DNA of 34,888 nucleotides from Candidatus Omnitrophota bacterium (GTDB lineage: Bacteria > Ratteibacteria > UBA8468 > B48-G9 > DSTR01). Each line of letters begins with the position of its first letter. The stretch's first letter is position 1. Location of the stretch: the NCBI GenBank assembly GCA_023818865.1, contig JAMWDF010000002.1:1-34888 (forward strand), read 5' to 3'. This document shows positions 3,147 through 29,081 of the stretch, one piece after another. Both the position numbers and the translations under genes were made by a program. The notes beneath the pieces are model-generated. The model was not told the DNA's origin. It saw only the letters and a program-made list of their open reading frames with translations, and made no database searches.

Positions 3147-3160
3147 TCCTCCCTCCTTTG

Positions 3161-5221: not shown

Positions 5222-5399
5222 CTGCAGAAGGTCCTCAAGAGATCAAGAACCCAGACCGTAGGTCAAAGCAAGTAAGTCAGTCGAGACATAGCCTTCAGTC
5301 GTATTTGGGATTTTCCCTACTCAAGCCGCCCATACCTCAATGACGCCAGGGCCTACATTTTGATTTTCTGCCTGGGGCTCATCTTTGGATAACACCCTT

Positions 5400-10300: not shown

Positions 10301-11356
10301 GGTATCAACAGTAAGCCCGGTAAAGATGGCTTCTTTTGGTTTCAGCCTCGCATGATAGCAACCGGAAGAAAAAACCAACCTGGGTCGGCCAATAATTTCG
10401 CCCTCATTAATCAAACCACGGCAATGGCTGACAATTCCTGACCCGCCAAAGGTAATGACAGAAACAGCGCTGGCGTCCAGGATGGCATCTTTCTCAATCT
10501 TTAACCCAGCACAGGCAAGATTACCTTTCAATCTGACGGTAGTGCCAGAACTTACACCCAGAGGTGGTAAAATCGCTTTGTTCCCGGTCACCTCCACCAG
10601 ATGGGTTTCTTTTCCCAAAAAAATTACCCAGGATTCTTCTTTTTCCTTTCCTCCACCACAAACCGCAGAGTCATCACTAAAAAGATTGCCGTTAAGGAAA
10701 ACCTGGCCTTCCATAGCCAGACTGGCAGAACTTTCCTTCCCTCCTGAAAAAGCAAGGTCCCCCTGAATGGTCAGGGTAACGCCCCGGGGAACAAAAAGGC
10801 CATGCCCGTTAAGAATTAGGTTGCCGGTAAGAGTTAGACTGTCAGTCAGAGTCACCCTGTAACTGTAAGAACCGGGAGGTAGAGTCAGAGAAGAAAAACT
10901 TGCTCCCCCAGCTTTAATCGCTGCATGATAACAGTATCCAGCAAGCACCAAAGCCGGTGTACCGACAATTTTCCCAAGATTGGTAAGCCCGCCTGGCCCA
11001 ACAGTGATAATAGAGTTTCCGTGAGAAGCATCAAGTGTTCCTTCAACCAAGATACCTTTTTTCTCTGAAGGTTGAAGATTTGTAAGTTTTAAATTATGTC
11101 CGGCCAGAGTGAGCCTGGCATTTTTTTCAATGACTAAAGAACCATCAACCGCTGCATCAGCAGTCAGCACAGGGTAGTTGGCCACGCCTCCAGAGATGAG
11201 AACATCTTTTCCGTCCCGGGCTACCGGCGCCTTTCCTGTGGACCAGTTTTCGCCAGAAAACCAGTCGCTGGTTTTTCCTGTCCACTGATTGGTGCCGGCA
11301 GTCAGCAAGGCGGAAAAGAGGAAACACCAAAGTCCCTGAAAGAGAAAGTATCTCAT
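7331..11356 (-). CDS. Large secreted multidomain protein: autotransporter-type beta-strand/beta-helix N-terminal region, discoidin/CBM-like domain and glycoside-hydrolase-like module
   Basis: 1341-aa ORF with GGAGGACAAGAA-ATG at 11356 and signal peptide MRYFLFQGLWCFLFSALLTAG. The N-terminus NQWTGKTSDWFSGENWSTGKAPVARDGKDVLISGG is typical of autotransporter-associated beta-strand repeat proteins. There are two internal ~110-130-aa repeats. The mid domain has a DTNGDGVCE loop. The C-terminal ~640 aa are paralogous to ORF 3161..5221. Confidence 0.65.
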   Translation of the reverse strand: MRYFLFQGLWCFLFSALLTAGTNQWTGKTSDWFSGENWSTGKAPVARDGKDVLISGGVANYPVLTADAAVDGSLVIEKNARLTLAGHNLKLTNLQPSEKKGILVEGTLDASHGNSIITVGPGGLTNLGKIVGTPALVLAGYCYHAAIKAGGASFSSLTLPPGSYSYRVTLTDSLTLTGNLILNGHGLFVPRGVTLTIQGDLAFSGGKESSASLAMEGQVFLNGNLFSDDSAVCGGGKEKEESWVIFLGKETHLVEVTGNKAILPPLGVSSGTTVRLKGNLACAGLKIEKDAILDASAVSVITFGGSGIVSHCRGLINEGEIIGRPRLVFSSGCYHARLKPKEAIFTGLTVDTGNYAYSVTQEGNLTIQGDVLFKVGSFNLGENVLTITGSCFLPPVPEKPRTDSFRLNFGKKAQIVFTGPQKATIESGGTVAKDSYSSIFPSLTVDKPASTLTITKAPLEVNGTFKLSQGILETKEGGELWLGVVRDTRYAHYEIHDVGLKLQGPLTKDQFPEIKPAVAPEALPGVVTLIHNQIGPELPKGLELANIAPAAKIRTIPYTTMVRLLVDPDEKLRTMPEPEKGTPVKTARYYFHFDTPQEIVAINWAVPSGPWAILVDTNGDGVCEKLLRADLEGKITNPGGVWKARTWIKNTFQPSVQNVSGILLATFGPPRYYDVQILVPKKQTTWKPAAPTPKNIPEIKGGEPITLRTPEPKEEVLKGFHIEPWMFNILGWLNTPKEKRPPLREYEPFLNFVTNIKKYHANVVNMWPPRNIQVPRGKGTYESDVLWPSQYDRWSLTENALKEIAEVFQASGLKLFTMDRCVYPKKLEEFPPSDTRDKPAPYISRHTREFLKGFVLEQVKSGVNGVGIGYDEQMGGLRNPANVDEATREAFQKKYNLPVPDKMEDTEAFRKWIIFGYEQFASYLAEAAAAAKAANPEVFTKTPVHVCLGNLWNGRIDLNIAEDIVGHMADIDFFRAYCYQNYGNLNHFVSAANTLRMLGANRGRAPASLHNCPWANDPVKYPGYYLDTTPAWMYGPPVVSFMHGGRLPLYWRYNFIFYGGYEKYVEQAYSLLDTLAVWGAKEARIPRQILVLKSRASEDWWQVRQRYNPEGNPADQTRGFIYEKWLLEFLLSHGYPFRIYYLEHPEDFASEISAYPLVILPFPYSISREAFQKIEKAAEAGTKILLLDRQGETDEWGNFYPVPLFSGMVSSGKALLVKEDIVSLGHNPDFLANFQKEIDKLLGPRKLFFFNSEGNDVETAIIEKGDREKFVLLLNWTDRAIKVTAGLNLPPGTYEAFLRDLDGVRKAVIGPETKIASSDLQQFLVSLEPWEMKILYVKGTQ
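10150..11060 (-). repeat. Internal tandem duplication at protein level within the 1341-aa ORF (two beta-helix-like modules)
   Basis: Module A is LDASHGNSIITVGPGGLTNLGKIVGTPALVLAGYCYHAAIKAGGASFSSLTLPPGSYSYRVTLTDSLTLTGNLIL...VTLTIQGDLAF. Module B is LDASAVSVITFGGSGIVSHCRGLINEGEIIGRPRLVFSSGCYHARLKPKEAIFTGLTVDTGNYAYSVTQEGNLTIQGDVLF...VLTITGSCF. Shared landmarks are LDAS, I.G.P.LV, CYHA, Y.Y.VT and LTI.G. Boundaries are approximate. Confidence 0.5.
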
Positions 11357-11412: not shown

Positions 11413-12216
11413 TTAATACACCGCGTCAGCCGGCGGCGCTCCGCCTGTTTGACTGGAATAATCATCAAAGGAGCGAGACTGCTGATACATACCCCAGTAG
11501 TGATTCTTAAGAGAAGTCTTCGCCTCCCCAGGGACAATACCAACATGGCCATCTACAAATAAAGCGTTACACTGACCGGCGTGCCGATAACCAAGCTGAC
11601 TCAACTCGTATAGTATCCCGTACCAGGTACTGCTGGCTGCTTCTACAATGAGGATTCTCTCAGAAGGATGGTCAACCCGGGAGCGGAAAACACCGTTGCA
11701 GGTATTGTAACAAGCGGTATTCATTCGGTTCCAGCCGTAACTAGTTCTTGGCGAAGCCCCGCCATAAGGCGGGTAACTACCCAGAGGCTGAGCGGCTCGC
11801 CAGGCACAGGCATAGTCACTCATTCCAGCCCAGTAAGGGTCATCAAAGGGTGGAACCTCGGGGAAAAGGACTCCCCAGGAAGGCAAGGCGGCAGCCATAG
11901 AAGGACACCGGAGCATATCCGGAGTTTTCCTGCTGCCTTCTACATAGCCCATATAAGGCAGACAAACGGTAATCCAGTTACCTTTGCCCTTGCCGGGATA
12001 ATCAGATGTTCCCTGGTAAGGCAATCGGTCATTCCAGTCGCTACAATACATAGCAACCACCTGGCCAATCTGCTTCAAATTGTTCATACAGGAGGCGCCT
12101 TCTGCTTTTTGCCTAGCTTTGCGCAGGGCAGGAAGAAGTAATGCGGCCAGGATAGCGATGATTGCCACCACAACCAGCAACTCAATCAAAGTAAAACCAG
12201 AAATTTTTCTTCTCAT
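11413..12216 (-). CDS. Prepilin-type N-terminal cleavage/methylation domain protein, H-X9-DG (DUF1559-like) pseudopilin
   Basis: GGGAGGAAAGAC-ATG start. The sequence [31 protein letters not shown] has the class III signal with G-F cleavage site and Glu+5. It carries the conserved head C.NNLKQIG. The C-terminal [14 protein letters not shown] is a canonical H-X9-DG. Confidence 0.85.
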
Positions 12217-12230
12217 GTCTTTCCTCCCTG

Positions 12231-13118
12231 TTACGGCATATAAATAAGGGGATTATGCAACCGGCTGATCCAGCCGGTCAATCCTTCTTGTCCGTTGGTG
12301 GCTGGTAGAACATAGAGGGTGTTGCCTTCCTGAACCACTTTCTGAGAAGGTATCCAGCGAACCGCACCGCTGACATAAAGGACGTTGATGCCATCTGTGC
12401 CATGGTTGTTCTCTTGCGTCAAGGTCAGACCAAGAGCGGTTGGGCTAGCTACCTGCTTGTAAACATCTACCGGCGAGGTACCATTATCCCAGCCTTCAAG
12501 ATACCAGTTTGGCGAACCAGCCAGGTTAGCCCGGCCAAAAGTCGCCGCAGGTCGCTGTCGGTCAGCCGCTAGGACCGAATCGTCCTGGGTAGAGCAATTC
12601 CAGCCAGTAGTAAAGTTGTAGGCATGTTCCCGGATGCTATAACTCACCCAGTCATAGGTAGAGATATCGCCGAGTTTACCGTAAGCGTAAGAGCATTCAC
12701 ACAAGATGGCCGGACCTTCTGAGCGGGTGGAGAGATAACCGCGATTGCGCACTCTAACAAGAGCTCGCATATCCATCTTCTGGCTGGGACAGAGAAAGAC
12801 TTCTGGATTCTTGATGTAGCTTACACCACCCAGACTGCCGGTAGAATCTTTACCCAGGAGTTTGTTAAAAGGACGCAGCGTCAAGATATACCAGGAAGCG
12901 GTGGCTGGCCCTCGGTAATCAGGGAACCAGCCGTCATAGTCTTCCGCATACATCCGGAAAGCCAGGCCGATCTGTTTTAGATTGTTCATACAGAGTGCTC
13001 GCCTAGCCTTTTCCCTGGCCTTGCCCAGGACTGGAAGTAACATCGCCCCCAAAATGGCAATGATGGCAATGACTACCAACAGTTCTATCAAAGTGAACCC
13101 TTTTTTCTTTCTCTTCAT
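12231..13118 (-). CDS. Prepilin-type N-terminal cleavage/methylation domain protein, degenerate H-X9-DG-like pseudopilin
   Basis: Track ORF 12231..13142. I moved the start to ATG 13118 (TTGGAGGATTGG-ATG), which removes the overlap with the upstream stop at 13132. The protein begins [31 protein letters not shown] and has CMNNLKQIG. The C-terminal [17 protein letters not shown] has Ser in place of the motif Asp and one extra residue. Confidence 0.8.
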
Positions 13119-13131
13119 CCAATCCTCCAAG

Positions 13132-13971
13132 TTAAAAGACACTTTCTACATTGGGTCCGCGTAGGAAAATCTGGTCATCAAAAGCATCAGTCGGTACCGT
13201 GTCAGTCATGTAATAAGGTCGGTCTCCAGGATAAACAGTAACATTGTAAGCGCAATTAGGTAATGCCGCAGCCGGCACATAACGGTAACCGTCGGAAGCC
13301 CGGTAAGAAGGAACCCAGCGAGCGTCCCCATGAATGTAAAGAACATTTATACCCACCCGACCATGGCTCATCATCCCGGTTAACCGCAGCCGGTAGTAAC
13401 CGCCATACCCGTAAGATTCACGGTTCTGAGTACCTCCGCCGCTATCATCTCCGGTGCTTTTCTTGTCGGCCACTAAAGCATAGTTAGACGATAGGAGAGT
13501 ACCAGCGGCCAACGTGGCTGGGATGGCGGGCTTCTTGGTATTCAGATTGAGAGCATAAGCATAAGAGCAGTGTTCGTACTTCAGATAACCGATGTCAGAT
13601 TTACTCTCATACCGGGAACTGGGACAAATAAAAATTTCTGGGTTGGTTATGTACCTTGGCCCCTCAAAATCTGCATCTGGCGCTGCTGCCGGCCCTCCCG
13701 GTCCAGAAACAATCTGGCCTACCAACAACATCAAGGAACGGGAACACTTGTTCATACCATTGGCATCCCTGGCCAGAGGAAACCAGCCGTCATAGTCTTG
13801 AGCATAGAGATAGAGGGCTACTCCAATCTGTTTCAGGTTAGAAATACAGGCGGCTCTTTTTGCTTGTTCCTGGGCCCTGACCAGCGCCGGAAGCAGCATG
13901 GCAGCTAGGACTGCGATAATAGCCACCACCACCAGTAGTTCAATCAACGTAAACCCCTCAGTTTTCTCCAT
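13132..13971 (-). CDS. Prepilin-type N-terminal cleavage/methylation domain protein, degenerate H-X9-DG-like pseudopilin
   Basis: Track ORF 13132..13980 begins at a GTG that abuts the SD. ATG 13971 sits 8 nt after AAGGAGG. The protein begins [30 protein letters not shown] and has CISNLKQIG. The C-terminal [17 protein letters not shown] has the DG replaced by HG. Confidence 0.8.
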
Positions 13972-14001
13972 ATTTCTCACCTCCTTGGTTTTCTGACAGT
14001 A

Positions 14002-16429: not shown

Positions 16430-17011
16430 TTACCTTGCCTTAGAACAGTCTGACAGACCAAGTGGGTCAATGCCGGTAAAAACAATTTCCCCCTGGGAAG
16501 TGATAAGAATTTCTGCCGGCAAAATATCCTGAAAATCTCTTTGGCTATATCTCCTAGTTAAGAAATGGAAGGTCTTATTGGCAGAACCCTGAAGGTCTTT
16601 AGCCAGTCTCTGTCCTTGGTCATACCGACCAGCAATGATGACATCAATCAGGGAAAATAAAGTTCTTTTTTCTCTCATTTTTATCACCTCTGCCCAACTG
16701 TAGCCGGTGAAAAGAATCACCGAAAGATTAGTCTGGGTCCGGAGAAGACCTAAGAATTCCAGTAGAGGTTTCTTCTGCTGGAGTGGCTCTCCGCCGCTGA
16801 TGGTCACCCCTTCTATCTGCCTGGAATAGCTGGCTATTTTTTCCACCAGGGCTCTCGGTTCAATCAGGTATCCACCTTTCCGGGGATGGGTCGCTGGGTT
16901 ACCACAGCCAGGGCATCCCAGGGTGCAGCCCTGAACCCAGATTACCGCCCGGTAGCCAGGCCCGTTGGCTCGACTGAAAGGGACCCAACGGTGGAGTCTT
17001 AAGGCGGCCAT
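16430..17011 (-). CDS. NrdG-like radical-SAM glycyl-radical activating enzyme (small, single-cluster type)
   Basis: The track start at 17029 is a TTG. ATG 17011 overlaps the dxs stop as ATGA. FSRANGPGYRAVIWVQGCTLGCPGCGNP contains the CX3CX2C motif. GVTISGGEPL is present. LIDVIIAGRYDQGQRLAKDLQGSANKTFHFL parallels E. coli NrdG LINVLVDGKFVQDLKDPSLIWRGSSNQVVHHL. There are no extra ferredoxin-type Cys clusters. Confidence 0.7.
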   Translation of the reverse strand: MAALRLHRWVPFSRANGPGYRAVIWVQGCTLGCPGCGNPATHPRKGGYLIEPRALVEKIASYSRQIEGVTISGGEPLQQKKPLLEFLGLLRTQTNLSVILFTGYSWAEVIKMREKRTLFSLIDVIIAGRYDQGQRLAKDLQGSANKTFHFLTRRYSQRDFQDILPAEILITSQGEIVFTGIDPLGLSDCSKAR

Positions 17012-18861
17012 CAACCACTCCCTAACCAAGAGTATGCTTCCTCCACTGACCGGGCAATGCCACGGCCAAAGAGGCCATATTTTTCTAAGATTTGCTTTCT
17101 CTGACCATGGCTGACAAAATCGTCAGGCAACCCTAAAACTAAAACTGGAGTTTTTCTCCTTTGCTCTGCCAAATATTCCAGTACAGCAGCTCCAAAACCT
17201 CCCACCCGGGAGTTTTCTTCTACGGTGACCACCAGCTGCCTCTTGCCTAACAACAATCTCTTAACCTCATCGCTTAGTGGTTTCACCTGATCCACTGCTA
17301 CTGCTGAGACTGAAAGTTCCTTGGTTTGAAGCAATTGGCTGGCCGTGAAACATTCCTCGGCCAGACTACCCAGTCCCAGAATCAGTACCTCTGCTTCTTC
17401 CCCGGAACCAAAAGATTGAGGCATATTTTCTGGGAGGTAAGCGCGGGGATAACGGATGGCTGAAGGAATTTTTTCCCGCAAACACTGGTGCAGGCACTTT
17501 CCCAAATTTTCTAAGCTGTAGGGAGCAAAGAGACGCAGCCGGGGAATAGTTCGGAGATAGGAAAGGTCATACATTCCCTGGTGGGTTGCTCCATCTTCTC
17601 CCACCACGCCGGCTCTATCCACCAGAAAAACCACCGGCAGTCCTTGAAGACAGACATCATGCCAGATTTGGTCATAGGCCCGTTGAAGAAAGGTACTGTA
17701 GATAGCCACTACCGGTCGTAACCCGACTTTCGCCAATCCGCTGGCTAAGGTAACACAGTGACTTTCAGCAATTCCCACATCCAGGAACCTCTCGGGAAAC
17801 CGAAGGGAAAAATCCTCCAACTCCAGCCCTTTTTCCATTGCCGCGGTAAGAACCACCAGCGTGTCATCATGACTGGCTATCTCCTCCAACGTCTTGGCGA
17901 CATAAGCTGAGGGAGTGGGCCCATTTTTTTCCATGGGGTGACCAGTCTTTATGTCAAACGGCCCTACCCCATGAAAATTCTCCGGATGCTCTTCTGCCGG
18001 CCGATAGCCTTTTCCTTTCTTAGTAACGACGTGAAGTAAAACCGGCTCATTGATTTCCTGGAGATTAGTTAGAATTTCCACTAATTGGCGCAGGTCATGA
18101 CCATCAATCGGCCCCAGATACCGCAGCCCCAGTTTTTCAAAGAAAACGCCTGGGACTAGAAGTTCCTTCGTTTTGGTTTCCAATTCCTCGGCCAGACGAA
18201 GAAGGTCATCACCAATATTCGGTATTTTTCGCAAAGCCTGATGAAGTTCTTGTTTCTGCCGGGTTATCCGAGGAGAGGTTACCAGCCGGGTAAGATAATA
18301 AGAGAGTGCCCCCCGGGTGGGGGAGATGGACATCTTGTTATCATTCAGAATTACCAGGAGTTTTTTCCGGCTGGCTCCCAGAAAATTCAGCCCCTCAAAG
18401 GTCAATCCATTGGTCAAGGACCCATCGCCGATTACCGCAATAATCCGGTGGTTGCTTTTGAGACTTTCTTCTCCCAGAGAGAGGCCAGTTGCTTGAGAGA
18501 CGGCGGTGCCGGCATGTCCGGTGAAAAAGATGTCTGCTTGGCTTTCTTCCGGGCAAGGGAAACCACTCAAGCCTCCTGTCTGTCTCAGGGTAAGGAAGAA
18601 ATCCTTTCGGTTGGTGAGAATTTTATGTGTATAACACTGATGTCCTACATCAAACACGAGTTTATCAGGGGGAATGGTGAAAACCCGATGAATGGCGATG
18701 GTTAATTCAATCGCTCCCAGGTTAGAAGCCAAGTGTCCGCCATTTCTGGCTACCACCTCAATAATCAAATTTCTGATTTCTTCAGCCAGGTCCTCCAACT
18801 CCCTGAGGGTTAGCCTTTTCAGCGTATGCTTGTCTTCTGATACTTGATCAAGGAGGGACAT
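17011..18861 (-). CDS. dxs: 1-deoxy-D-xylulose-5-phosphate synthase
   Basis: Diagnostic blocks are GGHLASNLGAIELTIAIHRVF, DKLVFDVGHQCYTHKILT, the ThDP motif GDGSLTNG and EDGATHQG. The track start at 18870 is a TTG; ATG 18861 (MSLLDQ...) is more likely. The start is uncertain by 9 nt. Confidence 0.9.
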   Translation of the reverse strand: MSLLDQVSEDKHTLKRLTLRELEDLAEEIRNLIIEVVARNGGHLASNLGAIELTIAIHRVFTIPPDKLVFDVGHQCYTHKILTNRKDFFLTLRQTGGLSGFPCPEESQADIFFTGHAGTAVSQATGLSLGEESLKSNHRIIAVIGDGSLTNGLTFEGLNFLGASRKKLLVILNDNKMSISPTRGALSYYLTRLVTSPRITRQKQELHQALRKIPNIGDDLLRLAEELETKTKELLVPGVFFEKLGLRYLGPIDGHDLRQLVEILTNLQEINEPVLLHVVTKKGKGYRPAEEHPENFHGVGPFDIKTGHPMEKNGPTPSAYVAKTLEEIASHDDTLVVLTAAMEKGLELEDFSLRFPERFLDVGIAESHCVTLASGLAKVGLRPVVAIYSTFLQRAYDQIWHDVCLQGLPVVFLVDRAGVVGEDGATHQGMYDLSYLRTIPRLRLFAPYSLENLGKCLHQCLREKIPSAIRYPRAYLPENMPQSFGSGEEAEVLILGLGSLAEECFTASQLLQTKELSVSAVAVDQVKPLSDEVKRLLLGKRQLVVTVEENSRVGGFGAAVLEYLAEQRRKTPVLVLGLPDDFVSHGQRKQILEKYGLFGRGIARSVEEAYSWLGSG

Positions 18862-22796: not shown

Positions 22797-23681
22797 ATGC
22801 TCATTGATTTTCACGCTCATATTGGCCGAGTCTCTCAAGAGAGAAAAGAATCCCTTGAGGCCAGTCAGATAATCTCTCGCTTGGACGAGTGGGGAATAGA
22901 CAAAGCCTGCGTGCTGGCCTTAAGCGAGACACCAGAGGGTAACTACCTGGAAGCTGACACCGAGGATGTTCTCCGGGAATGCAGCCATTTCCCGAAAAGA
23001 CTGATTCCTTTCTGTCTGATTGATCCCCGATTCGGGTTGAACAGCCCGGATATGGACTTTACCTTTCTCCTGGAAGAATATGTAGCCAGGGGTTGCCGGG
23101 GAATAGGAGAATTGCTACCAAAGATGTCTATTGATGACCCGCGGTGCCTCAACCTTTTCCACCAAGCTGGCCGATTTAAATTGCCGGTGGTGATTGACCT
23201 TCACAGTCGGCCAGTTTCCTACGGGCTGGAAGATGCCCCTGGCTTGCCTGGACTGGAGAGGGTTTTGAGAGTGTGTCCGGAAACAATTATTGTCGGGCAT
23301 GGTCCAACCTTCTGGGCTGAGATTTCCGGACAGGTCAGCGCTGAAGAAAGACAGGGCTATCCGTCTGGTCCGGTCAAGCCAGGCGGAGCAGTTCCAAGAT
23401 TGATGAAAACCTACCCTAATTTGTTTGCTGACCTTTCTGCTGGAAGCGGCTACAACGCCTTAACCAGAGACTTGTCTTTTGGCCTTGATTTCCTTGAGGC
23501 TTTCCAGGACAAACTTCTCTTCGGCACAGATTACTGTGTCCGCAGTCATACCAGAAATGAAGTCAAGATAATAGATTTTTTCCATCGGTTGAAGCAGGAA
23601 AAACTTATTTCCCTGGATGCCTGGGAGAAAATCGCCTGGAAAAATGCAGCCAGGTTGTTGAACTATGACCGAAAAAACTGA
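22797..23681 (+). CDS. Amidohydrolase-superfamily (Amidohydro_2/TIM-barrel metal-dependent hydrolase) protein
   Basis: MLIDFHAHIG carries the HxH metal ligands. Further ligands are an internal VVIDLHS, IIVGHG, and a C-terminal LLFGTDY (Asp ligand). 294 aa, no signal peptide. Confidence 0.7.
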   Translation: MLIDFHAHIGRVSQERKESLEASQIISRLDEWGIDKACVLALSETPEGNYLEADTEDVLRECSHFPKRLIPFCLIDPRFGLNSPDMDFTFLLEEYVARGCRGIGELLPKMSIDDPRCLNLFHQAGRFKLPVVIDLHSRPVSYGLEDAPGLPGLERVLRVCPETIIVGHGPTFWAEISGQVSAEERQGYPSGPVKPGGAVPRLMKTYPNLFADLSAGSGYNALTRDLSFGLDFLEAFQDKLLFGTDYCVRSHTRNEVKIIDFFHRLKQEKLISLDAWEKIAWKNAARLLNYDRKN

Positions 23682-25341
23682 CTTAGTGAAAATGATTGCT
23701 TCAGGAATTGCCCAGTTAAAAAGAAGCTATTCTTCAGGGACTGGCCGATTCCTTGACGAGAAAGGTCAATGGACTTTAACCAACCAGGATTTCATCTGGC
23801 CATTAGCCTGGTTTTTTGCCTGCCGGTATCCTGATAATCCCTTTTACCGCTCAAAAGAAATTCTGAACGCGGTCCAAAAAGGAGGGGACGCGATCGCGTC
23901 TTCCCAGGATAAAGACGGTCGGACGGAATTCCTTAAAGCTGACGGTTCTGCCTGGGGGAAAATTTATATGCCCTGGACAATGTTTCACTGGCTGGAGGCT
24001 TTCCGAGTTTGCCAGCCTTTCCTGGAAGAGAAACGAAAAGAAAGATGGAAGAAAGGTTTGCTGGCAGCCTATAGCGGCATCTCCCGGGAACTGAAAACAG
24101 ATCCAATCCATAACATCTCTGCCTGGAAAGCCATGTCTCTTTACCAGGCAGGAAAGGTTTTCTCTCATTCCGGTTGGAAAAAATTGGGCGGTGATTTTAT
24201 GAGAAAAGTGGCTGGAGAAGTTCAGCCAGACGGCTTCTGGCCAGAGGGTTCTGGTCCAACGGTTTCGTATAATACCATCTACCTTCACGCCCTCGGTCTT
24301 TACTATTTTATGTCCCGGGATGATTCTGTCCTTTCTGCCTTGGATAAGGCAACCGAATTTCACCGTCGCTTTTTATATCCGGATGGTTCCCTGGTGGAAA
24401 CCATAGATGGCCGGGTCAAATACCGGGAAGAAGTCTTATCTATCGGCTGGCCTGGTTTATTAACGGAGGGGAAGGGTCAAGGCTTAATCAGTTTTTTGCT
24501 AAAGTGCCTGAAGAGAAAACCTCCGGGAAAAATAGTCTTACCGTATCTAACTTCTGCCCTGGATATCTGGCCAGAAAGCTTTTCTTTGGCTGAACCGGTC
24601 TTCCAGGAAGAAAAGACTTGGCGAGAGGTTTACCGGGGAAAGGCTTGTCTAAGGAAAAAAGGAGATTTTTTTGTCTGCCTTTCTGGGTATGCTCTGAACG
24701 CCCAACAACAGCAGACAAATGCTGAGTCGCGTTGGTTGATGGACCGTTCCTGTTTTGTTTCGGTTTGGCATAGGAGTTGCGGCCTGATTATTTCCGCGGA
24801 TAATTCCAAGAACCAACCAGACTGGGCAAATTTTTCTTTTTGGCAAGGAGCCAGCCGGGGTTTCTCTCCAGTGAAAGCCAGGGTGTTTTCTGAAGACAAG
24901 AAAGATAGGCTCATTCTTGATTTTGGGGGGCCGAGCTGTCAGATAGCCGTTGCTTTCCCTCGCCCAGACAGAGTGGAATTAACTTTCTCTGTGGAGAAAT
25001 TTTCTCATCTCAAGCAGATTCGGGTAGCGGTGCCTTTACGACTTGGTGAAAGGGAGCAGGTCATTATTGGCCAGAGTAGGTTTAAGGTTTCACAGTTGAC
25101 CGAGCAACGGCTCAACCTTAAGACTGGAGAATACTTGAAGACAAAAAACTGGCAAATTTCCAGTCAGTTGCCGGCGTGGTTTTTCTGGCCGGTTTACCCT
25201 TTCAATCCCTATGCTCTCTCGGGTCTAGCCTTGCCTGAGCAAGTCCGGGCTTTCCTGGTCTTCAATCTTACTGCCAATCAACCTGTTAATCCCATTACCC
25301 TAAAGATGCATTCTGCGGTTCAGTCTGATAATCAGAAATGA
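23665..25341 (+). CDS. Hypothetical two-domain protein: helical (alpha/alpha)-toroid-like N-half plus beta-sandwich-like C-half (heparinase II/III-like architecture suspected)
   Basis: 558 aa, no signal peptide. The N-half is rich in W/Y helical repeats (DFIWPLAWFF, WTMFHWLEAF, PDGFWPEGSGPTVSYNTIYLHALGLYYF). The C-half segment RWLMDRSCFVSVWHRSCGLIISADNS is reminiscent of the H.D.LSF.L...G..L..D.G strand pair of heparinase II/III-type lyases. The gene overlaps its upstream neighbour by 17 nt and its downstream neighbour by ATGA. An alternative start is ATG 23692. Confidence 0.35.
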   Translation: MTEKTDLVKMIASGIAQLKRSYSSGTGRFLDEKGQWTLTNQDFIWPLAWFFACRYPDNPFYRSKEILNAVQKGGDAIASSQDKDGRTEFLKADGSAWGKIYMPWTMFHWLEAFRVCQPFLEEKRKERWKKGLLAAYSGISRELKTDPIHNISAWKAMSLYQAGKVFSHSGWKKLGGDFMRKVAGEVQPDGFWPEGSGPTVSYNTIYLHALGLYYFMSRDDSVLSALDKATEFHRRFLYPDGSLVETIDGRVKYREEVLSIGWPGLLTEGKGQGLISFLLKCLKRKPPGKIVLPYLTSALDIWPESFSLAEPVFQEEKTWREVYRGKACLRKKGDFFVCLSGYALNAQQQQTNAESRWLMDRSCFVSVWHRSCGLIISADNSKNQPDWANFSFWQGASRGFSPVKARVFSEDKKDRLILDFGGPSCQIAVAFPRPDRVELTFSVEKFSHLKQIRVAVPLRLGEREQVIIGQSRFKVSQLTEQRLNLKTGEYLKTKNWQISSQLPAWFFWPVYPFNPYALSGLALPEQVRAFLVFNLTANQPVNPITLKMHSAVQSDNQK

Positions 25342-27491
25342 CAGAGAGAGAAAGACAACAGATATTATCCTGGGAGCTAACCCCGGAGATAAAAATTCTC
25401 CGAGAAAAAGCCAGAGAGTGTCAGCGACTAATTCAGGAAGGATACTATTTGAGACCTTTTCAGCTTTCCCTGAGCGATGCCCAGGTCTGGTCAAATCGTT
25501 CTCCTGAAGAGGACTGGCTCATCTGGCGGGCTAGACGAACCGCTGAACGTCTGCGTGTCCTTCCCATCCATCTGGAGCCAGGTGAACTTATTGTTGGCAA
25601 GCCACTTTTTCGTCAGCCAACAACTGCTGAAAAAAAATTACTGAAGAAAGCAGAAAAAATCCTGGCTACAGTTCCGCCTTTTCCCGGAGGGGATGCTGGC
25701 CATTTCCATCCTGACTATGAGACTCTCTTCCAGGCAGGGATAGCAGGATTAGGTCTGAAAATTGTCTCTTGCCTGGAAAGTCCTAACCTCAAGGCTGAGC
25801 GAAAAGTTTTTTATCAAGCCTGCCAGATTGCCCTCAAGGGACTGCAGGTTTATATTCACCGGGTAGCTGAGGTTTGTCACAAGCTGGCTGGGCAAGATAA
25901 AAAAAACGTTGAGTCCTGGCAATCATTGAGTCAAATGTGTTGTTATCTGGCTAATAGTCCTCCTACCACCTTTCACCAGGCAGTCCAACTCCTTTTTCTC
26001 GTCACTATCAGCCTGTGGTTTGGAGAAGACCATGGACTCACTTCGCCGGGAAGATTAGACCGAATCCTCTGGCCATTTTACCAAGCGGATGTTAAGTCCG
26101 GTCGGTTAACTCCCCGGAGTGCTTTTGACCTGCTTTGCTGTCTTTTCATTCAGTATAACCGGATTCTTGGCCCAGGCTCAGCAGTGGCCGCGATGGTCGG
26201 TGGTCGGGATAGCCAAGGAAAGCCGATCTGTAATGACCTGACATTTATCTGCCTGGCTGCCAGAAAAGCCACCGGGCTGGTTTATCCAACGGTGGGCCTG
26301 GCTTGGCACAGAAATCTGCCGAAAAAACTGATGGATTTTTCCCTTAAAGTTTTGAGCACCGGCGTTGGTGACCCGGCTTTCTTCAATGATGAACTGATTG
26401 TTGAGGGGTTAAGGGAAAATGGGGTTAGTCGGCAGGATTCCTTTAATTATATGAATTCCACCTGTGTGGAAATAAAAATCTGTGGTGCTTCCAATATTTG
26501 GGTGACTGCTCCTTACTTCAACCTGCCTGGGGCTTTACTGGAGATCATTTGCTCCGGAAAGTCACCGGCTACCTTTGGAGCCTTAAAAAGCCTTTTGCGG
26601 AAGAATTTGTCAGAAAAGATTGCTTCAGCCGCGAGCAAACTGGATGAAATCTGGCAGAGACGCTCCCAGACTGGTTGTTTCCCGCTGGCCAGTTGCTTCA
26701 TCACTGACTGTCTGGAGCGCGGGCTGGATTTTGACCGGGGTGGAGCCAAATACAACTGGGTGGAGAATTCTTTTGTTGGCTTGGGGAATCTGGTGGACGG
26801 CCTTCTGGCGATTAAACATCTGGTATATGAAAAAAAGGTCCTGAGTTTGGACCAGTTTTCTCGAATACTCACTGCTAATTATAAGGGTGAGGAGAAACTG
26901 AGACAGTTCATTATTTCCCGATTGCCCCATTATGGCAACGACAACGATGAAGCAGACCGGCTGGCTAGGCAATGGGCTGAGTTTTTAATTCAGGAGACGG
27001 AAAAATGCCAAGTAGGGCCTCACCGATATGTTCCTGGGTTTTTCTGCTGGGTGATGCATGAAAGATTTGGCCGGGAAACTGGAGCCACCCCTGACGGGCG
27101 ATTAGCCGGTTGGCCTCTGGCGGATGGCGCAGGTGGCTGCCAGGGCCGGGAGACGAAAGGACCAACTGCAGCCGTTCTTTCTGCTACTAAATGGAGTCAC
27201 AAAAAAGTCCTCGGCGGACTGGTGCTAAACCTCAAGTTTTCTTCAGGTCTTCTGGCTACCAAGCAGGGGCAGGCAGCCGTGGGTAAACTGATAGAAACTT
27301 ACCTCAGCCGCGGTGGTTTTGAGGTCCAAATTAATGTGGTTAATTCAAAAATTTTGCGTCAGGCCCAGAAACATCCAGAAAGATATCAGGACCTCTTGGT
27401 CCGGGTGGCAGGCTACTCTGACTATTTTGTCCATCTACCGGAAAAACTCCAGCAAGAGATTATCGCCCGGACCGAGTACCGGGAGGGTTGA
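25338..27491 (+). CDS. Glycyl radical enzyme, PFL2/dehydratase-lyase type (compact, 717 aa)
   Basis: The C-terminal glycyl-radical motif is QDLLVRVAGYSDYFVHL (Gly692, nt 27411-27413), followed by QQEIIARTEY. The thiyl loop is YMNSTCVEIK (Cys376, nt 26463-26465), with Glu two residues after the Cys as in glycerol dehydratase/CutC-type GREs. The N-terminal block PIHLEPGELIVGK is typical of the PFL2 family. Confidence 0.85.
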   Translation: MTERERQQILSWELTPEIKILREKARECQRLIQEGYYLRPFQLSLSDAQVWSNRSPEEDWLIWRARRTAERLRVLPIHLEPGELIVGKPLFRQPTTAEKKLLKKAEKILATVPPFPGGDAGHFHPDYETLFQAGIAGLGLKIVSCLESPNLKAERKVFYQACQIALKGLQVYIHRVAEVCHKLAGQDKKNVESWQSLSQMCCYLANSPPTTFHQAVQLLFLVTISLWFGEDHGLTSPGRLDRILWPFYQADVKSGRLTPRSAFDLLCCLFIQYNRILGPGSAVAAMVGGRDSQGKPICNDLTFICLAARKATGLVYPTVGLAWHRNLPKKLMDFSLKVLSTGVGDPAFFNDELIVEGLRENGVSRQDSFNYMNSTCVEIKICGASNIWVTAPYFNLPGALLEIICSGKSPATFGALKSLLRKNLSEKIASAASKLDEIWQRRSQTGCFPLASCFITDCLERGLDFDRGGAKYNWVENSFVGLGNLVDGLLAIKHLVYEKKVLSLDQFSRILTANYKGEEKLRQFIISRLPHYGNDNDEADRLARQWAEFLIQETEKCQVGPHRYVPGFFCWVMHERFGRETGATPDGRLAGWPLADGAGGCQGRETKGPTAAVLSATKWSHKKVLGGLVLNLKFSSGLLATKQGQAAVGKLIETYLSRGGFEVQINVVNSKILRQAQKHPERYQDLLVRVAGYSDYFVHLPEKLQQEIIARTEYREG

Positions 27492-27591: not shown

Positions 27592-28539
27592 ATGAGACAT
27601 AAGGACAATACTCTCCTCCCCGAAGGCAGAAAGCAGAAAAAGAAAAGAGGGATTGCTGAGATTAGTTCTGTTTACCACCAGGAATTGTTCGCTGATATCA
27701 ATAGCCTTCTTGAAGAAGGAGGAATCCATCGGGTATTCTCAGACAGTGATACCGGCGTTTACCTTTTTCGCGGGGATTGCTTGGTCTTTATGGACATTCT
27801 CATCAAGAGCTTTCCCCGGGGTCTGGTTGACATGGTTTTCGCTGATCCTCCATATTTTCTGTCCAATGGAGGTATTACCTGCCGGGCCGGAAGAATGACC
27901 TGTGTGAACAAGGGTATCTGGGACAGGTCACGAGGAATAGATGAAAACCACCGATTCAATCAAGCCTGGCTTCTTCGGTGTCAGAAAATTCTCAAACCTG
28001 ATGGCACGCTCTGGGTTACCGGAACGCATCACGTTATCTACTCAGTTGGTTTTGCCATGCAGCAACTTGGTATGAAAATTTTGAATGATATCACCTGGGA
28101 AAAACCCAATCCACCGCCCAACCTTTCCTGTCGTTATTTCACCCATTCAACAGAAACAGTTATCTGGGCAGCTAGGGACAGGCGATCAAAACACCTCTTT
28201 AATTATGGGACAATGAGAAAGCTTAACCGTGGGCGGCAGATGAAAACAGTTTGGACCATTCCACCACCTGGTCCGGATGAAAAACATTTCGGCAAACATC
28301 CGACTCAGAAACCAGTTAAGCTTCTTGAGAGAATCATTCTGGCCAGCACCAGGGAGAATGATTTAGTATTCGACCCTTTTACCGGAAGCGGCACTACTGG
28401 GGTTGCCGCCGTGAATCTAAAGCGGAGATTCGTCGGTTGCGAACTTGATCCTACTTTCGCCGAACTTGCGGTTAAGCGATTGAAGCAGGCTACCCAAGAA
28501 AGAGTTGTTTGCCCGGAGATATTCGGAGTCAGGCGATGA
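27592..28539 (+). CDS. Type II DNA methyltransferase, beta-class N6-adenine (or N4-cytosine) family
   Basis: Motif IV VFADPPYFLSNGG comes before motif I LVFDPFTGSGTTGVAA, which is the beta-class order. HPTQKPVKLLERIILAS is present. DPPY rather than SPPY favours m6A. The N-terminal ~50 aa extension and the exact start are uncertain. Confidence 0.85.
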   Translation: MRHKDNTLLPEGRKQKKKRGIAEISSVYHQELFADINSLLEEGGIHRVFSDSDTGVYLFRGDCLVFMDILIKSFPRGLVDMVFADPPYFLSNGGITCRAGRMTCVNKGIWDRSRGIDENHRFNQAWLLRCQKILKPDGTLWVTGTHHVIYSVGFAMQQLGMKILNDITWEKPNPPPNLSCRYFTHSTETVIWAARDRRSKHLFNYGTMRKLNRGRQMKTVWTIPPPGPDEKHFGKHPTQKPVKLLERIILASTRENDLVFDPFTGSGTTGVAAVNLKRRFVGCELDPTFAELAVKRLKQATQERVVCPEIFGVRR

Positions 28540-29081
28540 AAAAGGACAGCCGGGGAGGCGGTCATACCATCACCGGCTTGAATTTCGAGAAGAAGGTTAA
28601 TCTTCAGGCAGCCTTAGCCAGCATTCCTGGTTACCAGATTCAGAAGGTGGCTAACAAAGCCGGTCACCACTTACTCTTCAAAGGAAAACTAGTTGCCAGA
28701 TGTTTCAAAAAGCACGAATTTTATGAATTTTTGAAGGAAAATAACATCCAGTGGAGGAAATTTGTCACCAGACGGTTATTGCCTGATGATGCTCTCTTGG
28801 TAGTCGTTCGGCGAACCTTGTTCATTATAGAAATGAAATATCAGCAAGTATCAGGCTCAGTGGATGAAAAACTGCAAACCAGTGATTTCAAGAAGAGGCA
28901 ATACACAAAACTTGTCAGCCCTCTGGGCTTGCAGGTGAAGTACGTCTACCTCCTCAGCAACTGGTTTAAGAAACCCGAGTATGCTGATGTTCTTGATTAC
29001 ATCAAGGATACAGGCTGCCATTACTTCTTTAACGAACTGCCGCTGATTTTTTTAGGTTTGCCTGAGGGTGAAGGTCACTGA
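28536..29081 (+). CDS. Putative Type II restriction endonuclease (PD-(D/E)xK fold)
   Basis: Track ORF 28509..29081. ATG 28536 overlaps the methyltransferase stop as ATGA. LLPDDALLVV...TLFIIEMKYQ gives a PD...E-x-K signature. It is 181 aa and sits directly downstream of the MTase. Confidence 0.6.
   Translation: MKKDSRGGGHTITGLNFEKKVNLQAALASIPGYQIQKVANKAGHHLLFKGKLVARCFKKHEFYEFLKENNIQWRKFVTRRLLPDDALLVVVRRTLFIIEMKYQQVSGSVDEKLQTSDFKKRQYTKLVSPLGLQVKYVYLLSNWFKKPEYADVLDYIKDTGCHYFFNELPLIFLGLPEGEGH

Follow-up and report, generated by a model that had tools for sequence, protein, structure and literature searches.

The 717-residue, oxygen-sensitive glycyl radical enzyme (GRE) encoded in the window analyzed here (the whole contig, 34.9 kb) belongs, by its sequence relationships, to a large, strongly conserved, and uncharacterized clade of compact PFL2-type GREs. 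Judged by alignment, it has every catalytic element of GRE 1,2-eliminases and isomerases (Gly692, Cys376, Glu378, and His122), and its pocket positions beyond these catalytic residues differ from those of every characterized member. It is encoded by the last of three genes that are probably co-transcribed as a lineage-specific unit of an uncultured Omnitrophota bacterium; the trio is not a conserved functional module, its grouping being confined to this small lineage. From the gene neighborhoods of its homologues, we tentatively propose that the GRE acts in this unit as a radical aldonate dehydratase whose activase is encoded elsewhere (a probability of roughly 0.35). The relevant features, with GD standing for glycerol dehydratase, are as follows:

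16430 to 17029, minus strand: small radical-SAM gene, 199 aa, of the GRE-activase/NrdG type, overlapping the stop codon of dxs
22797 to 23681, plus strand: Amidohydro_2 gene, 294 aa, TIM-barrel metal-dependent hydrolase, first gene of the unit
23665 to 25341, plus strand: lyase-fold gene, 558 aa, with a 17-nt overlap with the upstream amidohydrolase gene
25338 to 27491, plus strand: compact GRE gene, 717 aa, with an ATGA start/stop overlap with the upstream 558-aa gene
25701 to 25703, plus strand: His122 codon, in the motif PGGDxGHFHPDY, invariant in the clade and aligned with GD His164
26454 to 26477, plus strand: Cys loop NSTCVEIK, with the thiyl site Cys376 and Glu378 of the CXE motif
27402 to 27428, plus strand: glycyl radical loop RVAGYSDYF (Gly692), placed by translation, Gly_radical match, and HMMER alignment

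Organization and conservation of the three-gene unit

The open reading frames are exactly those described in the first-pass annotation, which had reported three overlapping plus-strand genes, and both overlaps (17 nt at 23665 to 23681 and ATGA at 25338 to 25341) were read directly in the DNA. These overlaps of 17 and 4 nt point to co-transcription of the three genes. As the frames are long and have very strong family matches, they are not due to chance. Microcompartment genes are absent from the window, and no activase adjoins the unit either.

The same annotation had treated the trio as a functional unit and suggested examining its conservation in related genomes, a comparison that went against it. 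Only one relative (L002, GRE 67% identical) has all three genes intact, and in another close one (L001, GRE 71% identical) the 558-aa gene has shrunk to a remnant of about 60 residues; the amidohydrolase-GRE pair is kept in both. Aside from these two loci, just 1 of 77 loci with relatives of the amidohydrolase contains a GRE, a distant one of 30% identity; for the 558-aa protein, no GRE was present in any of the 79 loci with its relatives.

The GRE and its catalytic residues

The 717-aa protein matches the Pfam PFL-like (E value of 7e-97) and Gly_radical (E value of 6e-26, residues 595 to 698) domains; the same profile searches, suggested at the outset, recovered Amidohydro_2 in the first protein and nothing in the 558-aa protein. 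The hallmarks originally read from the sequence (Cys376-x-Glu378 and Gly692) hold in the translation and in HMMER alignments to solved GREs: Cys376 and Glu378 align with Cys433 and Glu435 of GD, with C431 and E433 of PflD, and with the Cys loops of CutC and HypD. The protein is thus a genuine PFL2-type GRE with the CXE arrangement found in eliminases and isomerases, as had been supposed, with a Thr preceding Cys376 where Gly is usual. The Gly loop likewise aligns with those of HypD (RVAGYSDHF), GD (RVAGYSAQF), and PflD. Among 116 clade members, N373 to E378 and K380 are invariant, I379 is at least 95% conserved, and every position of the Gly loop except one is invariant. His122, aligned to 1r8w, 5i2a, and 8yjo, corresponds to GD His164, which has been proposed to assist the leaving hydroxyl as a general acid (PMC13450708).

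The enzyme had been placed outside the characterized clades, and this placement was borne out. All NCBIfam equivalogs score 3 to 4 times under their cut-offs, and the PFL2-3 subfamily model gives 393 bits against a cut-off of 678. The best PDB matches (243 to 286 bits) place it at about the same distance from diol dehydratase, PflD, CutC, HypD, and GD, and no matching enzyme was found in a 2026 review of GREs. Its shortness was also correctly noted, the solved PFL2-type GREs having 776 to 850 aa or more. Homologues were collected from at least 120 database clusters (56 to 70% identity, 674 to 768 aa). The clade, here termed GRE-a, has 160 positions invariant across 116 members and is compact (about 710 to 770 aa); in this analysis all its members came from uncultured Omnitrophota, Planctomycetota, Lentisphaerota, Poribacteria, Chloroflexota, and Armatimonadota.

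Comparison of the active site with those of GD, CutC, HypD, and PflD, as the first-pass annotation had recommended, showed aligned catalytic residues and differing pocket residues. The B12-independent glycerol and 1,2-propanediol dehydratases (1r8w and 5i2a) resemble the GRE in the PFL-like barrel, the Gly_radical domain, and the Cys-x-Glu loop, and His122 also aligns with His166 of the propanediol enzyme; a ketyl-radical 1,2-elimination is to be expected. However, the GRE is about 70 to 125 aa shorter, has Leu234 for GD Ser282 and Thr390 for GD Asp447, and lacks the loop bearing GD Tyr339. YbiW and PflD (8id7, 8id0, and 8yjo), the 1,5-anhydrohexitol-6-phosphate isomerases of “anhydroglycolysis,” are the only characterized GREs acting on sugars; they have the CXE motif and the His in common with the GRE, but similarity is low (PRK09983, 314 against a cut-off of 1109), and PTS or aldolase contexts are absent. 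HypD, the trans-4-hydroxy-L-proline dehydratase (6vxc, 271.8 bits), has the CXE motif and a near-identical Gly loop (VRVAGYSDHF, compared with VRVAGYSDYF in the GRE), but the GRE scores only 314 against a cut-off of 1100 with NF043068, lacks proline-metabolism neighbors, and differs in pocket residues.

The amidohydrolase and the lyase-fold protein

The 294-aa protein is a member of the Amidohydro_2 family (PF04909; E value of 3e-12, 47.3 bits against a cut-off of 26.4), and its N-terminal D4/H6/H8, together with H168 and D245, is invariant in 47 relatives. It has no PDB match by sequence. The folds in the PDB that best fit its AlphaFold2 model (pLDDT of 92) in Foldseek searches are the LigI-like 4i6k, 3irs, and 3cjp and the L-fucono-1,5-lactonase 4dlf (TMq of 0.59 to 0.66, rmsd of about 5 Å), whereas ACMSD-type decarboxylases fit less well (rmsd of about 8 Å). 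Hence, this protein is likely to be a lactonase-type hydrolase. More than 1600 homologues, 56 to 80% identical, occur across phyla. The genes found near relatives of the amidohydrolase encode DegT-type aminotransferases, M55 peptidases, or ceramidase-like proteins more often than a GRE.

The 558-aa protein has no sequence match in Pfam, NCBIfam, or the PDB, and its relatives bear only a weak precomputed “Ulvan_lyase_N” tag. The toroid plus β-sandwich architecture guessed earlier was subjected to the structural searches then proposed for it, and the AlphaFold2 model (pLDDT of 94.3) and Foldseek agree with it: the matches include dermatan sulfate epimerase 1, glycosaminoglycan lyases, heparinase III, the PL15 and PL17 alginate lyases, PL33, PL8, and PL40 (E values of 1e-8 to 3e-14, TMq of 0.5 to 0.65). 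As modeled, the protein is therefore an (α/α)-toroid plus β-sandwich protein of the polysaccharide/oligosaccharide-lyase or uronate-epimerase type. It has the same two-domain fold as PL8, PL12, PL15, PL17, PL21, PL33, PL35, PL40, and dermatan sulfate epimerase 1 (Foldseek probability of 1.00), but identity is 7 to 14%, and it falls in no PL family by sequence; most of these lyases are also longer, and the likeness is one of predicted fold. His149-Asn150, Tyr202/Tyr206, and Arg250 are invariant and are of the residue types used by toroid/β-sandwich lyases. The N terminus does not resemble a signal peptide, and the protein is apparently cytoplasmic. Paenibacillus relatives adjoin ABC-transporter permeases and AraC/Cache regulators.

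Gene neighborhoods of the GRE homologues

Homologues at least 50% identical to the GRE provided the sugar-acid context. One locus (L035) encodes a GntR regulator, a 2-hydroxyacid dehydrogenase, a FAH-family hydrolase, an aldehyde dehydrogenase, GRE-b, GRE-a, two SDRs, an epimerase-like reductase, and an Amidohydro_2 protein; the FAH, aldehyde dehydrogenase, and 2-hydroxyacid dehydrogenase set also occurs in L007 and L008. A 243-aa SDR (57 to 65% identical) is present in six homologue loci and an epimerase-like protein of 285 aa in five. Other contexts include a GH95 fucosidase directly upstream of the GRE (L012), a LacI regulator with a Zn-ADH (L026), sulfatase and FGE-domain giant proteins (L216), and GFO_IDH_MocA oxidoreductases with a 3-keto-disaccharide hydrolase and a PfkB kinase (L033 and L041). 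Amidohydro_2 is among the top recurrent neighbor families, and lactonase-family members of it recur beside the close homologues (at least 50% identity); since the amidohydrolases beside GREs in different loci show just 22 to 32% mutual identity, the link is one of families and not of orthologues. The sugar-acid gene set is found in only about 3 to 6 of approximately 23 distinct loci of the clade at that identity threshold, and many homologues lie amid housekeeping or unrelated genes, such as tmk/holB (L042 and L214) or Hdr/ETF-type genes (L037).

These contexts parallel the non-phosphorylative L-fucose/L-rhamnose and pentose (Weimberg-type) pathways, of which the expected SDR, Amidohydro_2 lactonase family member, FAH, aldehyde dehydrogenase, and GntR are found in homologue loci; the GH95 fucosidase likewise suits the oxidative fucose/rhamnose pathways. 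In contrast to these pathways, no enolase-superfamily or IlvD/Edd dehydratase was found in the annotated homologue loci, which have one or two GREs instead, and the window itself has only the amidohydrolase of the gene set.

The cognate activase

The observation that no activase is adjacent stands for the window, but this is not peculiar to it, most homologues also lacking one nearby. Canonical activases of about 310 aa (300 to 326 aa) directly adjoin GRE homologues in 6 of approximately 35 distinct loci (L013, L019, L022, L024, L029, and L033/L034), which indicates that the clade uses ordinary activases. Because the invariant Gly loop of the clade resembles that of HypD, the cognate activase is probably encoded off the contig, most likely as a canonical GRE activase of about 310 aa elsewhere in the genome.

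The one candidate named earlier, the 199-aa gene 8.3 kb upstream of the unit, is indeed the sole activase-like or radical-SAM gene in the window but makes a poor candidate. Its product has Fer4_12 and Radical_SAM domains and scores best, below cut-off, with NrdG (TIGR02491, 98.9 bits against 126.1; PFLE_PFLC, 46 against 174). That it serves as a dedicated, unusually minimal activase of this GRE is unlikely. Such a role would accord with the glycine-rich GRE-activase motif NGPGYR and the cluster motif Cx3Cx2C, with the lack of an adjoining NrdD (NrdD adjoins only a 27%-identical relative), and with retention of both this gene and the GRE in the two syntenic relatives. However, the gene stays with dxs in L001 and L002, so that synteny explains its retention; none of the loci tested has a homologue of it next to a GRE homologue, and its nearest other relatives (48 to 56% identity) sit in Hsp70-like/DUF1257/rSAM/WD40 clusters without GRE or NrdD. 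Further, GRE homologues with the same Gly loop adjoin the canonical activases, which have ferredoxin-type inserts, and activase specificity is thought to follow the Gly-loop sequence, here HypD-like and not NrdD-like.

Alternative explanations and proposed function

It is doubtful, though conceivable, that the three genes share no pathway, their order being a lineage-specific accident and the GRE acting on a non-carbohydrate small molecule such as an amino alcohol, hydroxy-amino acid, sulfonate, or another diol. The trio occurs in one other genome with its middle gene decayed in a second, homologue contexts are very heterogeneous and often housekeeping, relatives of the two partners are almost never GRE-linked, and the substrates of known CXE GREs are very diverse. 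Yet the overlapping start and stop codons point to one transcript, the amidohydrolase-GRE pair persists despite decay of the middle gene, and Amidohydro_2 and sugar-oxidoreductase genes recur by homologues in distant phyla; a sulfonate is further disfavored in that nothing around His122 evidently corresponds to the Arg/Gln/Arg sulfonate triad of C-S lyases.

Within sugar chemistry, we regard as rather improbable a YbiW/PflD-type ring-opening isomerase of an anhydro-sugar or anhydro-aldonate, in place of an open-chain aldonate dehydratase. Such an enzyme might convert 3,6-anhydrogalactonate to 2-keto-3-deoxygalactonate or act on an unphosphorylated 1,5-anhydrohexitol, by C2 hydrogen abstraction, a Glu-assisted ketyl, and cleavage of the adjacent C-O bond with the ring ether oxygen as leaving group. 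With 282.9 bits, PflD ranks among the leading PDB hits, the CXE motif and His are common to the GRE, YbiW, and PflD, and the tandem GRE-a/GRE-b pairs of homologue loci recall the stereoisomer pair YbiW/PflD. The aldehyde dehydrogenase, SDRs, PfkB kinase, GFO_IDH_MocA, and sulfatases near homologues are as in red-algal anhydrogalactose pathways, of which the step missing from these contexts is the enolase-type cycloisomerase. Nevertheless, the His-Asp pair that follows the Cys loop in PflD (H444-D445) and GD is Val389-Thr390 here, the GRE is as far from PflD as from diol dehydratase or CutC, phosphosugar-specific neighbors such as aldolases are absent from homologue loci, and the GH95 fucosidase and FAH-hydrolase contexts better suit a 6-deoxy-aldonate.

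A sugar-related substrate, as suggested in the first-pass annotation, is the most reasonable guess. For an aldonate, the amidohydrolase fold is nearest to lactonase-type members including the L-fucono-1,5-lactonase; against it, classical aldonate dehydration works without radical chemistry, making the rationale for a GRE not obvious, homologue contexts are heterogeneous, and relatives of the window amidohydrolase and 558-aa protein are almost never near a GRE. As Ser282 and Asp447 of GD are not conserved and its Tyr339 loop is deleted, the substrate could also be quite different.

Taken as a radical aldonate dehydratase, the GRE would first be activated by a separate radical-SAM activase. Following the mechanism of CXE GREs (PMC13450708), the Cys376 thiyl radical would take a hydrogen from a hydroxyl-bearing carbon, and Glu378 would deprotonate that hydroxyl, giving a ketyl radical; the neighboring C-O substituent would then depart, aided by His122, and the resulting α-keto radical would regain a hydrogen from Cys376. 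The likeliest substrate would be a sugar acid of the aldonate kind, for instance L-fuconate or a different 6-deoxy- or pentonate, and the product would be the 2-keto-3-deoxy acid. The upstream amidohydrolase might supply the acid as a lactonase-type hydrolase, and the 558-aa protein, as an accessory and not obligate partner, might work in the cytoplasm, at an earlier step, as a lyase of oligosaccharides or an epimerase-like enzyme on an imported glycan fragment. We infer that, in the homologue loci, the GRE replaces the classical aldonate dehydratase; in anaerobes, it would thereby stand in for the enolase-type or IlvD-type enzyme of the oxidative non-phosphorylative pathway.

Organization of the three-gene locus and its surroundings

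The window spans an entire contig of 34,888 bp from a metagenome-assembled “Candidatus Omnitrophica bacterium,” and the glycyl radical enzyme (GRE; locus tag NC911_00255) is the last in a row of three genes:

22797-23681, plus strand: amidohydrolase (294 aa; Pfam Amidohydro_2)
23665-25341, plus strand: 558-aa lyase-like protein without a Pfam match
25338-27491, plus strand: GRE (717 aa; Pfam PFL-like and Gly_radical)

The reading frames overlap by 17 nt between the first and second genes and by an ATGA between the second and third, a layout typical of a single transcript with coupled translation. GC content is even throughout the region, and promoter and terminator scans returned nothing informative. 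An N6/N4 DNA methylase (315 aa) is encoded directly downstream of the GRE (27592-29081, plus strand) and is overlapped by a small protein with a weak match to the PD-(D/E)XK nucleases; the two likely constitute a type II restriction-modification pair. Since tblastn recovered only a partial match to the methylase in L001 and none in L002 (the two syntenic close relatives among the loci fetched for comparison, all numbered with an L prefix), this pair looks like a variable insertion. At the other end of the contig, three large paralogous ORFs (884, 686, and 1,341 aa; 546-11356, minus strand) with no Pfam or NCBIfam match lie on either side of a DUF5696/GH129-like protein (5400-7334), and three DUF1559/N-methyl pseudopilin-like genes (11413-13980) come next. 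Together they are probably a glycan-processing cluster of the PVC type that has so far escaped characterization.

The GRE belongs to a large, compact clade with a distinctive active site

The GRE contains the PFL-like (PF02901; E = 7e-97) and Gly_radical (PF01228; E = 6e-26) domains. Its RVAGYSDYF loop, bearing Gly692, has the RVxG[YF] form of the GRE superfamily, and its NSTCVE loop supplies Cys376 and Glu378; both hallmarks had been called in the first-pass annotation and are borne out by translation and by HMMER alignments with solved GREs. In these alignments, Cys376 falls on Cys433 of the B12-independent glycerol dehydratase (GD), Cys431 of PflD, and the Cys-loop cysteines of CutC and HypD, while Glu378 and Gly692 fall on the catalytic Glu and Gly of the same four enzymes. 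Cys376 is invariant among 116 clade members, as is the whole motif C376-V-E378, which places the clade in the CXE class; this motif is the criterion for GRE 1,2-eliminases and isomerases (PMC13450708). A further residue, His122, lies in an invariant GHFHPDY motif and aligns with His164 of GD, His166 of the 1,2-propanediol dehydratase, and His172 of PflD, so that the general-acid histidine of GD is retained. The Gly loop, in turn, is nearly identical to that of HypD.

Other features set the enzyme apart from these relatives. The substrate-binding residues of GD are absent, with Ser282 and Asp447 replaced by Leu234 and Thr390, respectively; the loop carrying Tyr339 of GD falls in a deletion of about 12 residues; and the residue preceding the catalytic Cys is Thr rather than the Gly of GD. 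Likewise, the single Cys of STCVE lacks the adjacent Cys-Cys pair of pyruvate formate-lyase. The enzyme scores 393.3 bits against the PFL2/glycerol dehydratase subfamily model TIGR01774 (cutoff, 678.2), 224 to 314 bits against the HypD, CutC, HpsG/HpfG, PRK09983, and indoleacetate/hydroxyphenylacetate decarboxylase equivalogs (cutoffs, 1,000 to 1,150), and 67.7 bits against pyruvate formate-lyase (TIGR01255; cutoff, 994), thus lying 3 to 15 times under the cutoff of every NCBIfam equivalog, that of pyruvate formate-lyase included. Together, the cutoffs and the active-site residues exclude pyruvate formate-lyase, propanediol/glycerol dehydratase, CutC, HypD, and the C-S lyases as its identity. 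The best matches among solved structures, namely, diol dehydratase, PflD, CutC, HypD, and GD, all score 243 to 286 bits, and the enzyme is therefore about equally distant from each.

A protein search with this GRE recovered 535 homologues. The best 120 are 56 to 70% identical to it, measure 674 to 768 aa, and come from metagenomes of Omnitrophota, Planctomycetota (including Brocadiaceae), Lentisphaerota/Victivallales, Poribacteria, Chloroflexota, Armatimonadota, and Verrucomicrobiota; the named hits include no cultured isolates. We refer to this compact PFL2-like clade as GRE-a. An alignment of 116 full-length members has 160 invariant positions, with invariant motifs including PGGDxGHFHPDY, NSTCVEIK, YNWVENSFVGL, YVPGFFCW, TGATPDGR, QGRExxGPTA, and LLVRVAGYSDYF; the compact length (717 aa here versus 776 to 850 aa in solved GREs) is a trait of the whole clade. 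None of the enzymes listed in a 2026 review of the superfamily, namely, six C-O eliminases, CutC, three C-S lyases, and three isomerases, corresponds to GRE-a, and the review states that entire GRE clades still await assignment (PMC13450708). The GRE locus is real and correctly described, and GRE-a is one of these unassigned clades, large and with a distinctive active site. The existence of clades of this kind is expected by specialists.

GRE-a frequently occurs with a second compact paralogue, GRE-b (about 720 aa; 26 to 33% identical to the window GRE), which has a CTE Cys loop and a VRIGGYSEYF Gly loop. The pairing was found in L003, L007, L013, L019, L033 to L035, and L216, and five or six loci of the clade defined by at least 50% identity have GRE-b beside GRE-a; in L033 and L034, one canonical activase is located between them. 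This arrangement recalls the stereoisomer-specific GRE pair YbiW/PflD. Very large proteins (869 to 1,460 aa) with an HZS_alpha (hydrazine-synthase-alpha middle) domain also flank GRE-a/GRE-b pairs in Planctomycetota and Victivallales (L216:1011-15223, L007:7419-11168, and L026:6067-8676), those of L216 having additional FGE-sulfatase and discoidin domains and adjoining a sulfatase.

The trio is a lineage-specific arrangement

Conservation of the trio was assessed by tblastn on 32 GRE loci, 79 amidohydrolase loci, and 80 loci of the 558-aa protein. Orthologues of the window amidohydrolase were detected in just two of the 32 GRE-homologue loci, L001 and L002. All three genes are present in L002; L001, the closest relative, keeps the amidohydrolase and the GRE 460 bp apart, with a spacer (L001:9546-10000) that retains only an N-terminal remnant of about 60 residues of the 558-aa gene (tblastn E = 4e-11), pointing to recent decay inside the operon. 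In the reciprocal searches, a GRE was present in 3/79 amidohydrolase loci, namely, the two syntenic relatives and one other, in which it is 30% identical, 4 kb away, and on the opposite strand, and in one of the 80 loci of the 558-aa family (L002). When the genes neighboring these two families were clustered, no GRE link emerged, and the resulting clusters were all small and mixed in content (DegT aminotransferase, M55 peptidase, ceramidase-like protein, ABC permeases, and AraC/Cache regulators). A conserved three-gene module is ruled out across these loci. Hence, from this scarcity and the remnant in L001, the trio is a recent arrangement of one small lineage in which the middle gene is dispensable. 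Intact in L002 only and decayed in L001, it does not live up to the description of an unusual conserved operon of three partners. The first-pass annotation had named loss of the trio from every relative as a refuting condition, and on that count its claim survives by a narrow margin, through L002.

The partner proteins

The 558-aa protein has no Pfam match up to an E value of 10 and none in NCBIfam or, by phmmer, in the PDB, and its annotation was informative only through structure prediction and Foldseek. The AF2 model (pLDDT, 94.3) has a helical toroid up to about residue 300, followed by the strands of a C-terminal β-sandwich, and Foldseek confirmed an (α/α)-toroid with an antiparallel β-sandwich, the fold that had been guessed from the sequence beforehand. 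Its matches are dermatan sulfate epimerase 1, glycosaminoglycan lyases, heparinase III, PL15/PL17 alginate lyases, PL33, PL8, and the PL40 ulvan lyase, with TM-scores of 0.5 to 0.65 and sequence identities of 7 to 14%. By sequence, it falls in no defined PL or Pfam family, although a precomputed Ulvan_lyase_N tag, itself weak, is attached to some relatives. Members of its family occur widely, those of Paenibacillus adjoining ABC-transporter permeases and AraC/Cache regulators; that context, along with an N terminus devoid of any signal-peptide-like segment, would fit a cytoplasmic oligosaccharide-processing enzyme.

The amidohydrolase scores 47.3 bits against Amidohydro_2 (PF04909; gathering threshold, 26.4), and H6, H8, H168, and D245, which include the N-terminal HxH and the late Asp of the TIM-barrel fold, are invariant among its relatives. 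These number more than 1,600 and span Clostridia, Planctomycetota, Armatimonadota, and Lentisphaerota, with identities usually near 60%. No sequence match was found in the PDB, and the fold of its model (pLDDT, 92) matches PF04909-type structures in Foldseek. The best superpositions are on the LigI-like 4i6k, on 3irs and 3cjp, and on the L-fucono-1,5-lactonase 4dlf (rmsd of about 5 Å), the matches of lactonase size reaching a TMq of only 0.59 to 0.66; the ACMSD-type decarboxylases fit more poorly (rmsd of about 8 Å). The model thus suggests a lactonase-type hydrolase. In the amidohydrolase loci L045 to L121 and in L015, L016, L021, L031, L035, and L038, relatives of the window amidohydrolase and sister-clade GREs are also surrounded by a loose recurring set comprising a DegT/DnrJ/EryC1-type aminotransferase, Amidohydro_2, GFO_IDH_MocA, DUF4838 with CBM9, and a protein of about 410 to 490 aa with a faint neutral-ceramidase match, which suggests an (amino-)sugar catabolic module not yet characterized.

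The source of the activase

GREs depend on a dedicated radical-SAM activase that installs the glycyl radical. Neither the 34.9-kb contig nor the 22-kb regions of synteny in L001 and L002 encode a canonical enzyme of this type. The lack of an activase next to the GRE, singled out at first as remarkable, proves to be the common state in the clade (about 29 of 35 distinct GRE-homologue loci); the other six have one. Canonical activases of 300 to 326 aa with Fer4 inserts directly adjoin the GRE homologues in L013, L019, L022, L024, L029, and L033/L034. The window itself encodes one small radical-SAM protein:

16430-17029, minus strand: small radical-SAM protein (199 aa; NGPGYR glycine motif and Cx3Cx2C cluster site)

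It scores below cutoff with both NrdG (TIGR02491; 98.9 versus 126.1 bits) and the canonical GRE activase model PFLE_PFLC (TIGR02494; 46 versus 174 bits) and, unlike the 311-aa activase of L033, has no detectable Fer4 dicluster domain; the window contains no nrdD. Its gene overlaps the dxs stop codon and is kept in L001 and L002, a retention that we ascribe to synteny with dxs. The closest relatives outside the lineage (48 to 56% identity; Anaerolineae, Chloroflexia, and Blastocatellia) are found in a conserved four-gene cluster (L204 to L212, e.g., L204:5771-10798) that encodes an Hsp70-like ATPase (about 530 aa), a DUF1257 protein (about 125 aa), the radical-SAM protein (about 190 aa), and a WD40-repeat protein (about 750 aa), and no GRE or NrdD is encoded near them; nrdD adjoins only a 27%-identical relative from Bacteroidales. 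An ordinary NrdG encoded beside nrdD is thus excluded for the close relatives, found as they are in these clusters. The Gly loop, which is invariant throughout GRE-a, is also informative, as activase specificity appears to track its sequence (PMC13450708). Because homologues have adjacent canonical activases and the invariant loop is HypD-like, the simplest reading is that the window GRE is served by a canonical activase encoded elsewhere in the genome, off this contig.

Genomic neighborhoods and a possible function for GRE-a

The contexts of the GRE homologues are heterogeneous, several of them lying amid housekeeping genes (tmk/holB in L042 and L214) and one beside Hdr/ETF-type genes (L037). 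In L035 (Lentisphaerota), the order is GntR, 2-hydroxyacid dehydrogenase, FAH-family hydrolase, aldehyde dehydrogenase, GRE-b, GRE-a, SDR, epimerase-like reductase, SDR, and Amidohydro_2. The set of FAH-family, aldehyde dehydrogenase, and 2-hydroxyacid dehydrogenase genes (66 to 74% identical) recurs in L007 and L008, and, within the clade of at least 50% identity, six loci have the 243-aa SDR (57 to 65% identical) and five have the epimerase-like protein. Other neighbors are a GH95 fucosidase encoded just upstream of the GRE (L012), a LacI regulator and a Zn-ADH (L026), a double Amidohydro_2 (L007), a sulfatase with giant FGE-sulfatase-domain proteins (L216), and GFO_IDH_MocA oxidoreductases, a 3-keto-disaccharide hydrolase, and a PfkB kinase (L033 and L041). 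A Pfam count of 116 neighbor proteins from 26 further loci was headed by the activase, DUF4432, and Amidohydro_2; the DUF4432 proteins, which have an aldose-epimerase-like fold, are neighbors of GREs of a sister clade of 36 to 48% identity.

Nonphosphorylative L-fucose/L-rhamnose and Weimberg-type pathways employ a sugar dehydrogenase, a lactonase, an aldonate dehydratase, and a 2-keto-3-deoxy-acid 4-dehydrogenase, followed by an FAH-family hydrolase/dehydratase and an aldehyde dehydrogenase; they were reportedly described by Yew et al. in 2006, Watanabe and Makino in 2009, and Hobbs et al. in 2013. We take the recurrent gene set to represent enzymes of these pathways. A single family is missing from it: no aldonate dehydratase of the enolase or IlvD type was found in any of the annotated GRE-homologue loci. 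In CXE GREs, the thiyl radical takes the hydrogen of a carbinol carbon as the Glu deprotonates the hydroxyl, and a vicinal C-O, C-N, or C-S substituent is lost before the α-keto radical regains a hydrogen (PMC13450708). Applied to an aldonate, which the amidohydrolase of the window would supply from its lactone, this chemistry would have the thiyl radical abstract the hydrogen at C2, yielding a ketyl with the assistance of Glu378, and the C3 hydroxyl leave with the assistance of His122, to give a 2-keto-3-deoxy acid. Hence, given the recurrence of the sugar-acid gene set, the missing classical dehydratase, and the product that a CXE GRE could generate, we propose that GRE-a may dehydrate aldonates by radical chemistry. 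By analogy with YbiW/PflD, it could otherwise be a ring-opening isomerase acting on an anhydro-aldonate, a closely similar possibility.

Stated broadly, the compact clade, often as a GRE-a/GRE-b pair, would be a radical sugar-acid dehydratase or cycloisomerase that takes the place of the aldonate dehydratase of the enolase superfamily or IlvD/Edd type in an oxidative, nonphosphorylative 6-deoxyhexose or pentose pathway operating anaerobically. Its users would be uncultured glycan degraders of the PVC group, Armatimonadota, and Chloroflexota, which might, for instance, use fucose liberated from sulfated glycans resembling fucoidan. We regard this assignment as tentative and rather unlikely to hold in full. 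The sugar-acid gene set is present in only a minority of the GRE-homologue loci; the amidohydrolases beside different GREs are mutually just 22 to 32% identical; and relatives of the window amidohydrolase are more often found near DegT-type aminotransferases, M55 peptidases, and ceramidase-like proteins. Moreover, classical aldonate dehydration proceeds without radical chemistry, and literature searches returned nothing relevant on GREs in these phyla or tied to fuconate, rhamnonate, anhydrogalactonate, or fucoidan, nor any link between GREs and sugar acids. That the gene order of the trio is devoid of pathway information agrees with its scarcity among relatives, and we consider this, too, doubtful. 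To the layered explanation as a whole, which combines the GRE locus, its function, its partners, and the off-contig activase, we assign a probability of roughly 0.35.

GREs catalyze chemically difficult anaerobic reactions, and newly assigned clades have each exposed an overlooked pathway, as in the cases of choline conversion to trimethylamine, hydroxyproline, isethionate, and anhydroglycolysis. Given the size and strong conservation of GRE-a and its restriction, within the collections searched, to uncultured glycan-degrading phyla, the compound on which it acts is probably abundant in the environment. The size and restriction of the clade in these collections, the testable substrate hypothesis, and the ready GRE-plus-activase pairs make it worth following, and loci with an adjacent canonical activase (e.g., L033/L034) offer a practical pair for expression. 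If the sugar-acid reading is true, this would be the first GRE to act on a carboxylated, unphosphorylated sugar; it would mean that an oxidative sugar pathway operates in anaerobes by way of a radical dehydratase, adding a new substrate class to GRE chemistry and improving the metabolic annotation of many metagenome-assembled genomes.
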